Of a stretch of 27,033 bases of DNA, positions 22,679 through 27,033 are shown piece after piece. The stretch's first letter is position 1; every line of letters begins with the position of its first letter. The translations under genes and the position numbers were made by a program. Below the pieces are notes generated by a model. That model did no database searches and had not been told where the DNA came from. It saw only the letters and a list, made by a program, of their open reading frames with translations. Source of the stretch: a virus (Duplodnaviria > Heunggongvirae > Uroviricota > Caudoviricetes); the IMG/VR virus record IMGVR_UViG_2974747673_000001, positions 39,882 through 66,914 of that record, one strand, 5' to 3'.

Positions 22679-23119
22679 TTATTTACTGAATAGTTTACTG
22701 AATAAACCAAATATTCCCATTTCTTTTCTTAGTTCTTCTTTAATTACTTGTTTAGCTTCTTTTAATTGTATTTCTGCATATAATCTATTATACTCTTCTT
22801 TACTAATATCCACTAAATCATATTCATATCTTTTCCAAGTACCTTGCATATATTTAGTATTTAACTCTACCTTAATACGAATTTTTAAATATATAGACCG
22901 AATAACCAGTTTTACATTAAAATAATTACTTGTATATATACTACCTAAAATATAATCTGAAACCTCATTTTTATATACACTATCTAAGTCATCAAAATCT
23001 AATACATTTAAAGTTATATGTTCATTTACTGTTGGTTGGTATTCCTGTCTTAATTCATCTAATTTCTTATACATTTCAGCTTTTGCTTCTGCAAATATTT
23101 TATTTATTGGTCTATTCAT
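22679..23119 (-). CDS. Hypothetical protein, 146 aa
   Basis: gggag RBS. Confidence 0.85.
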   Translation of the reverse strand: MNRPINKIFAEAKAEMYKKLDELRQEYQPTVNEHITLNVLDFDDLDSVYKNEVSDYILGSIYTSNYFNVKLVIRSIYLKIRIKVELNTKYMQGTWKRYEYDLVDISKEEYNRLYAEIQLKEAKQVIKEELRKEMGIFGLFSKLFSK

Positions 23120-23131
23120 AGTATCATCTCC

Positions 23132-23599
23132 TTATCTTATTGCTAATCTTTCTTCTTTCTCTTTCTTAGCTATCTTTTTATTTCCCATCATATTTCTCAT
23201 ATCTTGCATTGAATAACTACTACACTTAGTTACTTTCTTTGTACTTCCACTATAATAATATTTACTATGTTTACTACTCCAAAAGAAACCTAAATCTTTA
23301 AGTAATTTATCATTATCTCTACTTGTATCTACCCATAACCAATCTCCTACTACTTCTAATTCCATATCCTCATAGTACATTAACTCATCTATCAATGACT
23401 TTACCATTTCAGACATTCTAACATCTTTATATTCTTTCTCTACAAAGTGTTTGATAAGATATTCATACTCATTATATAATTCTCTAAATTGCTCGTCTGT
23501 ACCTCCTTTATCAGGGTGGTATTTCTTTGATAACTCTCTAAAATGTTTCTTAATATCTGTTATTGTTTCATATTCTTTATTTAGATATTTATATTTCAT
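23132..23599 (-). CDS. J-domain (DnaJ-like) protein, 155 aa
   Basis: IKKHFRELSKKYHPDKGGTDEQFRELYNEYEYL with intact HPD; distinct C-terminal domain (GDWLWV...GFFWS). Confidence 0.9.
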   Translation of the reverse strand: MKYKYLNKEYETITDIKKHFRELSKKYHPDKGGTDEQFRELYNEYEYLIKHFVEKEYKDVRMSEMVKSLIDELMYYEDMELEVVGDWLWVDTSRDNDKLLKDLGFFWSSKHSKYYYSGSTKKVTKCSSYSMQDMRNMMGNKKIAKKEKEERLAIR

Positions 23600-23627
23600 A
23601 ATTTCACTCTCCTTTACTTGATAACTA

Positions 23628-23656
23628 ATAATATCATACTTTTATCTGTTTGTCAA
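23628..23656 (-). promoter_or_regulatory. sigma70 promoter of the 23599-18728 operon
   Basis: TTGACA-17-TGnTATTAT. Confidence 0.8.
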
Positions 23657-23708
23657 GTAAAATATTCACTATTTATCAGTATTTTTATTTGAGGCTATGA
23701 GAGGCTGT

Positions 23709-23760
23709 TTAACGAGTTTTATCTTGTGAGAGGTATAATTATATACCTTACTCGTTTTAA
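23709..23760. other. Imperfect hairpin element, TATA-core family (copy 7)
   Basis: aacgag/ctcgtt arms around aggtataattatatacct. Confidence 0.75.
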
Positions 23761-23823
23761 ATGTGTTATACGAGGTGTGAGAGGGTTGGTTTTTAATGAG
23801 GAGATATAGGAAAAGTTGGGGAT

Positions 23824-23872
23824 AAAAAAGAGAGTAGGAAGTAGGGTTAGCTACTTAGGTACTCTCTTTTTT
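23824..23872. terminator. Bidirectional terminator of the acrIII-1 operon
   Basis: aaaaaagagagta/tactctctttttt with inner aagtag/ctactt. Confidence 0.8.
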
Positions 23873-23896
23873 ACTTGTGATGTATATTAATAATTA

Positions 23897-24220
23897 TCAG
23901 TTTTTTCTTTCTAGTAGTTGAAATTCATATCCTATTTCTTCTATTTCTTGTATTGTTAATAATATTTGTCCTTCCAATAGTCTACTCTTTAACTTGAATA
24001 TAATTGCCTTTTGTCCTACTTCTTGTTTAAATTGTCCTCTATTCATTGGTACTTCTGTTCCTAACAATATACTTATTATTTCTGCTGTTGCTTGGTGTCC
24101 TATGTAACTTATAAATTCATTTTCATTAACTAATTTTTGTGCTTGTTCTAATGTTATATTACTTAATTTATATGTTCCTTCTCCTGTTAATATTGGTGTG
24201 TTTAAAATTCCTATTGTCAT
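23897..24220 (-). CDS. acrIII-1: AcrIII-1 family (DUF1874/YddF) viral ring nuclease, anti-type-III CRISPR
   Basis: 107 aa; ILN..I...G.Y, SYIGHQATAEIISILLG (catalytic GH motif), NR, GQKAIIFKL..RL.EG.IL and YEF.L match the recalled DUF1874/YddF pattern. Confidence 0.92.
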   Translation of the reverse strand: MTIGILNTPILTGEGTYKLSNITLEQAQKLVNENEFISYIGHQATAEIISILLGTEVPMNRGQFKQEVGQKAIIFKLKSRLLEGQILLTIQEIEEIGYEFQLLERKN

Positions 24221-24251
24221 ATTATCACTTCTCCTTTTATCTTCCTAAAAA

Positions 24252-24425
24252 TTACCAATCTACATTACTTGCCACTTGTTTTCCATTTAATAAATATATT
24301 TTATGTTCTATGTATCCATCATAATGGTCGTTAAAATATGTATCTGTTCCTAAATGTGTCCCACCTTGTTGTTCTATTTCTTTGTTTGTTAATTCTACTA
24401 AATTGTATTTTGTTAAGTCTGTCAT
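24252..24425 (-). CDS. 57-aa protein co-transcribed with acrIII-1 (not in ORF track)
   Basis: aaggaggt RBS; MTDLTKYNLVELTNKEIEQQGGTHLGTDTYFNDHYDGYIEHKIYLLNGKQVASNVDW. Confidence 0.75.
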   Translation of the reverse strand: MTDLTKYNLVELTNKEIEQQGGTHLGTDTYFNDHYDGYIEHKIYLLNGKQVASNVDW

Positions 24426-24436
24426 ACATTACCTCC

Positions 24437-24502
24437 TTATAGATTATTAATACTTATTATTGCTATTACTACATAACCAACTAACATACTTGTTATTATC
24501 AT
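24437..24502 (-). CDS. 21-aa hydrophobic peptide MIITSMLVGYVVIAIISINNL, first gene of the acrIII-1 operon (not in ORF track)
   Basis: aaaggag RBS directly after the promoter; its stop abuts the next RBS. Confidence 0.55.
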   Translation of the reverse strand: MIITSMLVGYVVIAIISINNL

Positions 24503-24533
24503 ATTATCATCTCCTTTCTTAACTTTATAATTC

Positions 24534-24562
24534 ATTATAGCATATCGTAAAATATATGTCAA
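24534..24562 (-). promoter_or_regulatory. sigma70 promoter of the acrIII-1 operon
   Basis: TTGACA-17-TGnTATAAT. Confidence 0.85.
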
Positions 24563-24568
24563 GTGTTT

Positions 24569-24790
24569 TTATAATTTATTTAATAAAGTATTTAAGTCAC
24601 TATCTATACCTATATGTGTATCACTGTAAGAATTCACATCTATATAATAATTATTTATAGCATTTATTATATTCTGTTTATTTTTAAGTAGTTGTCCACT
24701 ATTCATATCCTTATAGATTGTAAGTATACCTAAATCATCTAATCTACACATTATAGCTTTTAATGTTTGTCTATCTTTTTTATTTGCCAT
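24569..24790 (-). CDS. Hypothetical protein, 73 aa, with its own promoter
   Basis: aaggaggt RBS. Confidence 0.85.
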   Translation of the reverse strand: MANKKDRQTLKAIMCRLDDLGILTIYKDMNSGQLLKNKQNIINAINNYYIDVNSYSDTHIGIDSDLNTLLNKL

Positions 24791-24818
24791 TTGTTACCTC
24801 CTTTATTTTATATAAATA

Positions 24819-24847
24819 ATTATATCATAACTTTAAATTAATATCAA
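24819..24847 (-). promoter_or_regulatory. sigma70 promoter
   Basis: TTGATA-17-TGnTATAAT. Confidence 0.75.
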
Positions 24848-24856
24848 TACTTATTT

Positions 24857-25606
24857 TTAAAATATTTCAAATCCACCTTTCCAATAATTTCTAGTACCTA
24901 CTTTTATATTAAATTCTTTATTTAATTGTTTTGCTAACTCTGTTACATATTCCATTGTTGGAACTTTAAACTCACAACCCTTAACTTCATTATATTTTCT
25001 TAATGTCCAAAATACATTGTTATAATGTTTTAATTCCTTTGCTATTTCTCTAAGTTCTTCTATTGTTGTATCTGCAAATATTGGTGTTCTAACATCTACT
25101 ATAACATTGTTTTCTTCACATAAAGCTAATATTTCTTTTTGATGCATTCTAGGGTTATTTATTCCTGTTATTTTTTCTATGTTTTCTTTATAAAATGCTT
25201 TATAGTCCATTGCTATATAGTCTAAATATTCTATTATTGATTTTACATAATTATAATTACTTCCATTATGTGCTATTGATATTTTACTATTATAATTTTC
25301 TTTCATATATTTTGCTATTTCTAAACTTTCTTTTGGATATACACTTGGGTCGCCACCACTTAATCTTACCCTTCTACCTTTTATAGCTTCTCTATCTATT
25401 AGTTCTTTTAATTCTTTTATACTTACATTTCTAGTCTTTATTACATTTCCTTGACTATCTATGTATTGACAATCTCTCTTGCAATATGGACAGTGAAAAT
25501 TACACCCACCAAAAGAAATTATAGCCATTTCTTCTGTTTCTCTTTCAAATGCCTTTAAAAAATATGCCTTTCTTATTTCTAAGTTATTTCTATTTAATAA
25601 TTTCAT
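24857..25606 (-). CDS. Radical SAM protein of the glycyl-radical-activase (PflA/NrdG2-like) type, 249 aa (start revised to MKLLNR)
   Basis: GGCNFHCPYC CxxxCxxC, LSGGDP, DYIAMDYKA, VDVRTP; aaggag RBS before 25606. Confidence 0.85.
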   Translation of the reverse strand: MKLLNRNNLEIRKAYFLKAFERETEEMAIISFGGCNFHCPYCKRDCQYIDSQGNVIKTRNVSIKELKELIDREAIKGRRVRLSGGDPSVYPKESLEIAKYMKENYNSKISIAHNGSNYNYVKSIIEYLDYIAMDYKAFYKENIEKITGINNPRMHQKEILALCEENNVIVDVRTPIFADTTIEELREIAKELKHYNNVFWTLRKYNEVKGCEFKVPTMEYVTELAKQLNKEFNIKVGTRNYWKGGFEIF

Positions 25607-25634
25607 AATATCATCTCCTTTTATGTTATATCTC

Positions 25635-25663
25635 ATTATACACTATTTATAAAATTATGTCAA
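25635..25663 (-). promoter_or_regulatory. sigma70 promoter
   Basis: TTGACA-17-TATAAT; the -10 overlaps the ATG used by the ORF track. Confidence 0.85.
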
Positions 25664-25684
25664 TATATTTTTTTAGTGTATATT

Positions 25685-25713
25685 AAAAGAGATAGAGGGT
25701 TAGTCTATCTCTT
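25685..25713 (-). terminator. Intrinsic terminator
   Basis: aagagataga/tctatctctt plus U-tract. Confidence 0.8.
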
Positions 25714-25716
25714 AAA

Positions 25717-27033
25717 TTAAATATAATCTCTTGTTTCTGTATTATAAGTCTGTTCTGATATAACTTGAAATAAAGACATAAATTTATTTAAGTCTAGGTA
25801 ATTTATATGTAAATCCATAGCTCTAAAATTTAAAGGTCTAAAGTAATTTGCTAAATCTTTAATTGTACTATCTAACATTACTTGTTTATTTCCTTGAACA
25901 CCTATACAATTATTATTTCCATTTAACCATTCATCTAATCTAGGAAAATAAGGTTTAAAATGTTTAAACACATTCATTTTATTACTTAAATTAAAACCTA
26001 TTGCATTTTGATATAAATTTTCTTTCATATTAAAATTAAAAGTTTGAGTAAATGGTAATGTATATACTGTTTTTATCTTATAATATTCTTGTATATTTTT
26101 ATAAGGATTTTCTTTTTTCAAATAGGAAATTAAACTTACTCCATTACTTACTAACTTAGGTACTACTGAAAGTTTATACTCTGTATTATCCTCATATGTG
26201 AAAATAAAACCTGAAATATAACCTACACCATATGTACTCTTATTAGAACTATCATATATAGAAAGGAAATCTATTTGTCCTCCACTTTCTTTAAAATTCA
26301 TCTTAGGGTTATAAATAGTTTGCCAACCTGAAAAGAACCCTACATTATGATATTTTATATTTGAGAAATAAACAGAATCTTGTAAACCATTATGATATAT
26401 ACTAATACCCCAATCTTCCTTTGGGAATTTTACAGGAGTCATACTAAGTTCATAAGTTTTGTCCTCTAAATTAACATATACTTTATTATTCTTAACAAAA
26501 AATATATTCTCTAATAGTGAAGTTTTTTTCATTCTTACATAATTTTGTTCTCTTAATACATAAGGTTCTGAACCATATAACATAGAATTACAATCCGAAT
26601 AAGCATATAATTGTTGTGGGGATACTAACCCTATTGTACTTTCTGATGTTCTAACAATATATAACTTAGGTAATACTACTTTATAATCTACAGTACCTTC
26701 ACTTGAATCCCCTGAAACTTTAAGATATACTCTTTTAGTTCCTAAAGATTCAAAAGAAGTATTAGAACCTACCCCCTCTAATTTATATATTGAAACATTA
26801 CCACTTTGTCCTGTACAAGTTATATTACTCTTAATTTTGTGAATAACTTTTACATTTTCTCCATTTAAAACCCTATCAAATATACTATATAATCTTTCAT
26901 ACAGAGGATTAGGTCTATAATTAGGGTATTTTTTACTCACTGAAAGAAAATCTACCAAAGGTACAAGTTTATATTCTCCTTGACTTTTAACTACAAATGA
27001 ATATACTGGAGATTGTATTAAAAAAGTATTATA
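25717..27033 (-). CDS. C-terminal part of a large hypothetical protein, possibly virion or tail related; 5' end outside the window
   Basis: The frame stays open for 25 more codons upstream of the TTG at 26958, to the window edge; rich in S/Y/N/G/V. Confidence 0.8.
   Translation of the reverse strand, partial: YNTFLIQSPVYSFVVKSQGEYKLVPLVDFLSVSKKYPNYRPNPLYERLYSIFDRVLNGENVKVIHKIKSNITCTGQSGNVSIYKLEGVGSNTSFESLGTKRVYLKVSGDSSEGTVDYKVVLPKLYIVRTSESTIGLVSPQQLYAYSDCNSMLYGSEPYVLREQNYVRMKKTSLLENIFFVKNNKVYVNLEDKTYELSMTPVKFPKEDWGISIYHNGLQDSVYFSNIKYHNVGFFSGWQTIYNPKMNFKESGGQIDFLSIYDSSNKSTYGVGYISGFIFTYEDNTEYKLSVVPKLVSNGVSLISYLKKENPYKNIQEYYKIKTVYTLPFTQTFNFNMKENLYQNAIGFNLSNKMNVFKHFKPYFPRLDEWLNGNNNCIGVQGNKQVMLDSTIKDLANYFRPLNFRAMDLHINYLDLNKFMSLFQVISEQTYNTETRDYI

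Follow-up and report, generated by a model that had tools for sequence, protein, structure and literature searches.

The locus described here raises the question of whether a phage gene encoding an AcrIII-1 ring nuclease is accompanied, in the same operon, by further proteins which act against bacterial defence. The window, by which we mean the whole stretch of 27,033 nucleotides that was analysed, covers positions 39882-66914 of a 130,914-bp virus record and is Fusobacterium nucleatum phage FNU1 itself, which has been described as lytic. An original prediction for this DNA had proposed that a DUF1874 (AcrIII-1) gene closes a three-gene operon and that the small genes upstream of it are candidate new anti-defence genes. 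We found that the middle gene of the operon encodes an acidic protein of 57 amino acids (aa), hereafter p57, whose relatives are repeatedly located beside ring nucleases of two different families and which, on this sequence evidence, is a good candidate for a new counter-defence protein. We lean towards reading the whole operon as an early counter-defence cassette of FNU1, which would be transcribed by the host RNA polymerase and have p57 as its second component, and we hold this reading with slightly better than even confidence. All of the genes concerned are on the minus strand, and their coordinates agree with the predicted ones exactly or to a few bases:

24562-24534, minus strand: operon promoter of the sigma-70 type, TTGACA-17-TATAAT with a TG extension (TGnTATAAT), 12/12 consensus matches
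24437-24502, minus strand: open reading frame (ORF) of a 21-aa micro-protein, uncharged and hydrophobic, MIITSMLVGYVVIAIISINNL, with AAAGGAG 9 nt upstream
24252-24425, minus strand: p57 (FNU1 ORF80), a 57-aa acidic ORF with AGGAGG upstream, isoelectric point (pI) 4.8
23897-24220, minus strand: AcrIII-1/DUF1874 gene (FNU1 ORF79), Pfam PF08960, 107-aa product
23874-23822, minus strand: intrinsic terminator, a hairpin with A-tract and U-tract arms

The predicted layout, running from the promoter through the 21-aa ORF, the 57-aa ORF and the DUF1874 gene to the terminator, was borne out and is conserved in relatives. In related loci the promoter, peptide, middle gene and DUF1874 gene form a constant unit, and the promoter hexamers are kept in diverged relatives despite differing upstream DNA. 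The strong ribosome-binding sites ascribed to the genes of the operon are also present (AAAGGAG for the peptide and AGGAGG for p57), a 73-aa gene which lies upstream of the operon has the site AAGGAGG, and the stop codon of the peptide overlaps the AGGAGG site of the p57 gene. The terminator hairpin had a folding free energy (dG) of -21.9 kcal/mol and a z-score of -7.55, with 0 of 200 shuffles equally stable. It looks bidirectional, and had been overlooked by a simple consensus scan owing to its long loop. No Rfam family matched within window 23000-25800, and a conserved operator-like inverted repeat was looked for at the operon promoter and not found. In this arrangement one consensus promoter would drive three tightly spaced genes ending at a strong terminator, and we infer early expression from host-type promoters; a look for RNA sequencing runs containing the cassette turned up none. 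It should be noted that the upstream genes are not unannotated, as had been claimed, since the FNU1 paper names ORF80 (58 aa) and ORF81 (74 aa) and the record of phage FNU2 (placed, as is FNU3, in the species Latrobevirus FNU1 along with FNU1) calls all four genes hypothetical proteins; they are genes without an assigned function rather than without annotation. The FNU2 record gives the peptide as a 41-aa version with a TTG start. We rejected this annotation, as the start lies inside the -35 hexamer and relatives conserve the ATG and its ribosome-binding site.

By homology the product of the third gene is an AcrIII-1-type ring nuclease, as predicted, and is already known as such in the literature. 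It matched Pfam PF08960 at 100.6 bits (E = 6e-29, cut-off 26) over profile positions 3-100 of 101, and its best match in the Protein Data Bank (PDB) was AFV3-109 (2j6b, E = 4e-23). Residue H42, within an IGH motif, aligns with the IGH of SIRV1 ORF114 (2x4i), 6scf and AFV3-109. By residue count along a local phmmer alignment, H42, T45, R61 and R80 align with H47, T50, R66 and R85 of SIRV1 gp29, in which His47 has been reported as the absolutely conserved catalytic residue and R66, R85, T50, S49 and N8 as the residues contacting cyclic tetra-adenylate (cA4). Residue S49 of gp29 corresponds to A44 in the FNU1 protein, and AFV3-109 likewise has an alanine there. In our DUF1874 alignment (A7) H42 was invariant, as was N7 near the N terminus, which is probably the equivalent of gp29 N8. 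The homologue in phage Fnu1 which the original prediction had mentioned is real and is exactly this gene: the family alignment of the AcrIII-1 paper includes the Fnu1 protein by name. DefenseFinder has also been reported to detect acrIII1 in FNU2 and FNU3. A match to the PADLOC model named Csx16 (1.2e-19) agrees with the published structural likeness of Csx16 to AFV3-109. Judging by its family, the nuclease would cleave the cA4 of type III CRISPR systems and so switch off cA4-activated effectors. In common with the AcrIII-1/Crn2 proteins SIRV1 gp29, AFV3-109 and THSA-485A, it is a full-length viral member with the catalytic histidine, the cA4-contact residues and a predicted early promoter. 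It differs in sitting within a fixed three-gene cassette together with a micro-peptide and a small acidic protein, an arrangement not described for AcrIII-1, in having alanine in place of Ser49 of gp29 (as AFV3-109 has) and in also matching PADLOC Csx16.

Two further occurrences of the DUF1874 domain were seen in proviruses (L numbers denote individual loci and contigs). In a Fusobacterium provirus (L033:1471-2100) the domain is fused to an N-terminal extension of approximately 100 residues, giving 209 aa in total, and in another (L034:1474-1800) a stand-alone DUF1874 gene adjoins the integrase at the prophage end.

We then considered whether the small ORFs are genuine genes. Across approximately 20 related metagenomic phage contigs all four ORFs were found to be under purifying selection, with pairwise ratios of non-synonymous to synonymous polymorphism (pN/pS) of 0.15-0.5 for the peptide (mostly 0.2-0.5), p57 and DUF1874 and of 0.2-0.6 for the 73-aa gene. 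The small ORFs can therefore be taken as real coding genes: their pN/pS values fall in the range of DUF1874, and the peptide variants stay in frame with few second-position changes. The peptide, p57, the 73-aa protein and the alternative 63-aa protein had no meaningful match in Pfam, PHROGs, PADLOC or NCBIfam. A protein-atlas feature search queried with the three small proteins gave no usable match, and none of the three matched a helix-turn-helix (HTH) or ribbon-helix-helix (RHH) domain.

The p57 proteins make up an acidic family not described before, for which a fold can be predicted and which matches nothing informative. A word-index search found homologues with 80-91% identity, all in metagenomic contigs of FNU1-like phages, and a HMMER search of 1.8 billion representatives added only two further p57 clusters (46-51% identity). 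Scans with the family alignment located 6 provirus loci and 23 metagenome loci. Nothing was found when a p57 relative was searched against plasmids by tblastn, and two scans of a collection of species-representative genomes, with the alignments of p57 and of Csx20, confirmed no locus. All members of the family are acidic (pI 4.4-4.8). An AlphaFold2 model of p57, built from a 16-sequence alignment, reached a pLDDT of 88 and a pTM of 0.71 and showed a beta-alpha-beta-beta-beta order. This topology is like that of a single module of the VOC/glyoxalase-bleomycin-resistance proteins, but fold searches (PDB Foldseek, VIA wide, AFDB clusters, BFVD and Atlas) gave weak generic matches only, to one such module and to similar folds (best Z 3.7, Foldseek E ≥ 0.03, TM by query 0.5-0.6). 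Rows for the ligand-binding domain of STING in these searches were low-scoring (E of 0.17 or worse) and were not trusted. In FNU1, FNU2, FNU3 and L044 a TAA stop (window 24252-24254) removes a C-terminal xFLGR tail from p57. Other FNU1-like relatives (forms of 63-64 aa) read a sense codon at this position, followed by FLGR or a near variant, and in the distant members of the family the tail is a related one (WxF-type or shorter), a different one or absent.

The evidence for a role of p57 in counter-defence comes from its neighbours. Hidden Markov models from alignments of DUF1874 and of Csx20, an experimentally confirmed cA4 ring nuclease which is unrelated to DUF1874 in sequence, is present in phages too and has been proposed as a co-opted anti-CRISPR, were searched against all ORFs of the p57 loci. 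An unbiased scan of metagenomes with the family alignment gave 23 p57 loci, of which 8 had DUF1874 and 8 had Csx20 within 5 kb; of the 7 loci without a ring nuclease within this distance, 5 were too short to tell. The original prediction had suggested checking for co-occurrence with DUF1874, and for p57 this check was positive, with ring nucleases of two families repeatedly adjoining the family (16 of the 23 loci within 5 kb). Of all 50 loci, 36 had a ring nuclease at most 3.6 kb from p57 and on its strand. Linked ring nucleases always share the strand of p57, which lies upstream of DUF1874 and downstream of Csx20. The following architectures were seen:

Architecture A: peptide, p57 and DUF1874 genes adjacent, in FNU1-like phages
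Architecture B: p57, three genes, then DUF1874, in contigs of up to 128 kb (L056-L066); these contigs have a GmrSD_N gene in common with FNU1-like phages
Architecture C: Csx20 then p57, adjacent, then a 71-aa protein, in DNA of higher G+C
Architecture D: Csx20, a 390-aa protein, then p57
Architecture E: Csx20, then 380-430-aa proteins and p57 in units that are interleaved or in tandem
Architectures F and G: p57 in the early regions of proviruses, where no ring nuclease adjoins it

The contigs of architecture B are probably distant kin of the FNU1-like phages. The identity of Csx20 was assigned from a match of the L023 protein to NCBIfam NF040559 (Csx20 equivalog; 83.1 bits, cut-off 70) and from matches of the PADLOC Csx20 model to proteins of L021, L045 and L048 (E values of 1e-14 to 2e-22). 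Relatives of p57 lie directly downstream of csx20 in L021, L022, L048, L049 and L051. TnpB, SocA/Panacea, NrdG and DHH-like genes lie around Csx20, cas genes were not seen there, and these neighbourhoods have the look of mobile elements, not of CRISPR loci. No locus was confirmed when viral contigs were scanned with the Csx20 alignment. Among the Fusobacterium proviruses which carry p57, two of five had a DUF1874 gene, at distances of 8 kb and 47 kb.

Several other genes in the Csx20 loci are worthy of note. The 380-430-aa proteins between Csx20 and p57 (L023:3198-8962, L055:2033-8903 and L045:3808-4980) had no match in Pfam, PHROGs or PADLOC, and in L023 they occur in tandem units alternating with copies of p57. 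They are another candidate counter-defence family; a search for the 400-aa neighbour protein in phages found nothing. A DHH-family-like phosphoesterase (L048:7178-8365; a weak match, below the Pfam cut-off) is encoded 2 kb downstream of a Csx20-p57 pair, and it is only a thought that it could act on linear oligoadenylate products. The 71-72-aa protein which follows p57 in Csx20 loci resembled a distant paralogue by eye, but the hhalign probability was just 8.9% and we make no such claim.

The first gene of the operon would encode a translated, uncharged hydrophobic peptide of 21-22 residues which is translationally coupled to the next gene. Its ORF is the sole intergenic hydrophobic mini-ORF with a Shine-Dalgarno site in the 27-kb window, and only a weak plus-strand promoter-like site was seen near it. 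We found 11 nucleotide variants of this ORF, all of them in frame and one set with a single-codon insertion, in which the variable sites at codon positions 1/2/3 number 9/3/10. The substitutions (I/V, M/L, A/V, A/T and S/F) are conservative and hydrophobic, a pattern expected of a constrained hydrophobic peptide. The peptide ORF is also kept where an unrelated basic protein replaces p57, and with its ribosome-binding site in L069-L071, where the internal promoter is missing. The peptide is confined to FNU1-like phages and probably inserts in the membrane; the original prediction had suggested that it may block membrane-bound effectors of cyclic-oligoadenylate signalling. Taken together, the 21-aa ORF is a well-supported conserved phage micro-protein which standard annotation has overlooked or given the wrong start.

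A further gene which had been put forward as an anti-defence candidate lies immediately upstream of the operon:

24847-24819, minus strand: promoter of the 73-aa gene, TTGATA-17-TATAAT with a TG extension, 11/12 consensus matches
24569-24790, minus strand: 73-aa gene (FNU1 ORF81), with an AAGGAGG ribosome-binding site and its own 11/12 promoter

This gene was correctly described as separately promoted and without a terminator. No structure follows it (z 0.27), which makes read-through into the operon plausible. Its homologues (63-90% identity) were found in FNU1-like phage contigs only; it is missing from L003-L010 and elsewhere present with or without a radical SAM gene. The peptide ORF follows it directly in L069 and L071, without an intervening promoter, and in L069-L071 the stop codon of the 74-aa gene directly precedes the ribosome-binding site of the peptide, which indicates that this gene can share the transcription unit of the peptide operon. 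An AlphaFold2 model of the 73-aa protein was all-helical (pLDDT 77), and a fold search with this model found no match below E 2.6. It would be a neighbouring accessory gene, co-transcribed via read-through and in some relatives part of the same operon. The suggestion that p57 and the 73-aa protein may act on other steps of type III immunity or on other systems has some support for p57, whose family is associated with ring nucleases. The 73-aa protein, with no relatives beyond FNU1-like phages and no fold match, has no independent association of this kind.

The middle gene of the cassette is not fixed. In L011-L013 and L067-L071 an unrelated basic protein (pI 10) of 61-63 aa replaces p57 directly upstream of DUF1874:

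L011:5368-5559, L067:4001-4186 and L069:4001-4186: basic 61-63-aa replacement protein, no family match

This protein could be a nucleic-acid binder or regulator. Exchange of the middle gene, with the peptide and the nuclease on either side of it staying constant, is a pattern typical of accessory counter-defence cassettes.

From these data p57 would most likely be a second, separately acting component which counters cyclic-oligoadenylate signalling, a role to which its genomic association points. It could bind an effector or messenger beyond the reach of the cA4-specific nuclease. We put forward only tentatively, as a possibility which we think somewhat unlikely, that p57 founds a counter-defence family alongside ring nucleases and a membrane-acting peptide, and that the operon would be the first multi-component anti-type III cassette in a bacteriophage. 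Its likeness to Acr clusters and anti-defence islands consists in small acidic proteins of unknown fold beside a validated Acr family, a strong early promoter and gene swapping. The FNU1 cassette differs from these in having no HTH Aca anchor, and in that the link is to an enzyme class (ring nucleases of two folds) rather than to one Acr family.

Other explanations have to be weighed against a counter-defence cassette. It may be that only the ring nuclease acts against defence. The peptide, p57 and the 73-aa protein would then be accessory products of the early or host-takeover kind, unrelated to it and encoded next to it because small accessory genes gather in shared variable regions. We consider this rather doubtful, yet it stays a serious rival, since p57 is also found where no nuclease is near: it is present in provirus early regions with none adjacent, the region in FNU1-like phages is a hot spot in which radical SAM, GmrSD_N and 73-aa genes come and go, and no similarity of p57 or the 73-aa protein to a known Acr or defence-related family was found. 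Unrelated neighbours fit less well with p57 lying on the same strand as, and close to, two ring-nuclease families in at least three diverged architectures. Ring nucleases are also rare in phages overall (36 AcrIII-1 and 5 Csx20 in 28,114 genomes), so that the association of p57 is far above the phage-wide base rate. A different explanation concerns the 21-aa ORF, which could be a mere leader or coupling ORF, or a membrane-damaging toxin-like peptide, with no specific counter-defence role. The overlap of its stop codon with the next ribosome-binding site, the absence of the first ATG in L009 and L010 and the very short, uncharged product would all fit such an ORF, yet we think this unlikely, given that the amino-acid character is kept across the 11 variants, with few second-position changes and an in-frame insertion, and that no cassette type is without the peptide, even where the middle gene has been swapped or the promoter is missing. 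Type I toxins such as Ibs are very short hydrophobic peptides of about 19 aa. The FNU1 peptide is like them in its 21-22 residues, almost wholly hydrophobic and of a length for one membrane span, and differs in heading a protein-coding operon in a lytic phage and in having no charged residue; no antisense RNA partner of it was found, although no search was aimed at one. We think it very improbable that an Aca-like role, regulating transcription of the acr operon, falls to p57 or the 73-aa protein. Small regulators are common in Acr operons, and csx20 operons with the RHH protein Aca14 have been published; these resemble the p57 loci in being small operons of a ring nuclease, borne on mobile elements and encoding a further small protein. 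The published partner, however, is a basic RHH regulator, whereas p57 is acidic, has a predicted beta-alpha-beta-beta-beta fold and bears no DNA-binding signature. With no HTH or RHH match and no operator at the promoter, p57 is unlikely to be a DNA-binding regulator, and the 73-aa gene, often missing, is not part of the unit between promoter and terminator. The combination which defines a canonical acr-aca operon, an HTH or RHH Aca with a promoter operator, was not found in the cassette.

A number of observations nevertheless weigh against the counter-defence reading. The fold searches with p57 were uninformative, and the p57 of FNU1 itself is C-terminally truncated, without the tail conserved in its close relatives. 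In L009 and L010, which lack the first ATG of the peptide, a possible 16-aa product remains, and one variant, in a single contig, has an aspartate within the hydrophobic core. The two provirus contexts without an adjacent ring nuclease show that p57 is not an obligate partner of one, and its link to these nucleases could come from both being placed in accessory or early regions. The contexts linked to DUF1874 (FNU1-like phages and L056-L066) probably descend from one ancestor, so that there are approximately three independent associations and not sixteen, and the base rate of ring nucleases in Fusobacterium phages is clearly higher than the phage-wide rate. As to the hosts, the CRISPR systems reported for those of FNU2 and FNU3 are of type I-B, and none of type III is listed. 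F. periodonticum has been reported to have a type III-A locus with Csm6, and we found DUF1874 in three separate lineages of Fusobacterium phages, an argument for type III pressure within the genus.

If p57 does contribute to counter-defence, this would matter in several respects. The known inhibitors of type III CRISPR are very few, and cA4 is the only target of AcrIII-1. A small family travelling with two ring-nuclease families would imply a second, complementary phage route against cyclic-oligoadenylate signalling, and the role of p57 is directly testable in existing heterologous type III assays. FNU1 is under development as a therapeutic phage against Fusobacterium nucleatum, and counter-defence genes bear on host range and on the emergence of resistance.

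The slot upstream of the cassette is variable. In FNU1 it continues beyond the 73-aa gene with a further gene:

24857-25636, minus strand: radical SAM gene with its own 12/12 promoter

The encoded protein scored best against NrdG2 (70 bits, cut-off 131) and weakly against prokaryotic viperin (42 bits in NCBIfam, cut-off 180; PADLOC pVip 4.8e-11). It is below every curated cut-off, and is present or absent in relatives independently of the cassette. Other genes, for example one with a GmrSD_N domain, occupy the upstream slot in some relatives.

The cassette also lies at the edge of a large repeat-flanked block, of which one boundary falls in the window:

23492-23896, no strand assigned: right arm of an inverted repeat, 405 bp, starting directly after the AcrIII-1 stop codon and containing the terminator

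This arm is a perfect inverted copy (100%, reverse strand) of FNU1 38981-39385 (L036:3542-3946), and contains, besides the terminator, the promoter and the first 36 codons of the next gene. The arms flank a block of 24.8 kb (approximately window 1-23896) which holds the nrdD/nrdG region, tRNAs and many small genes, and the A-tract/U-tract terminator is found at both block ends. The ends of the FNU2 and FNU3 records in GenBank match window 23897-27033 at 100% identity. Both records stop exactly at the outer arm edges and are without the block and without the arms. Many metagenomic contigs likewise end just past the DUF1874 gene because of the arms which flank the block. The arrangement resembles large and small single-copy regions divided by inverted repeats, and the 24.8-kb block may be either invertible or lost during assembly; relatives L015 and L019 hold it in the FNU1 orientation. 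The product of the gene past the terminator (window 23132-23599) is 155 aa long and has at its N terminus a DnaJ (J) domain slightly above the Pfam cut-off; the gene has its own promoter at 23656-23628, within the inverted repeat.

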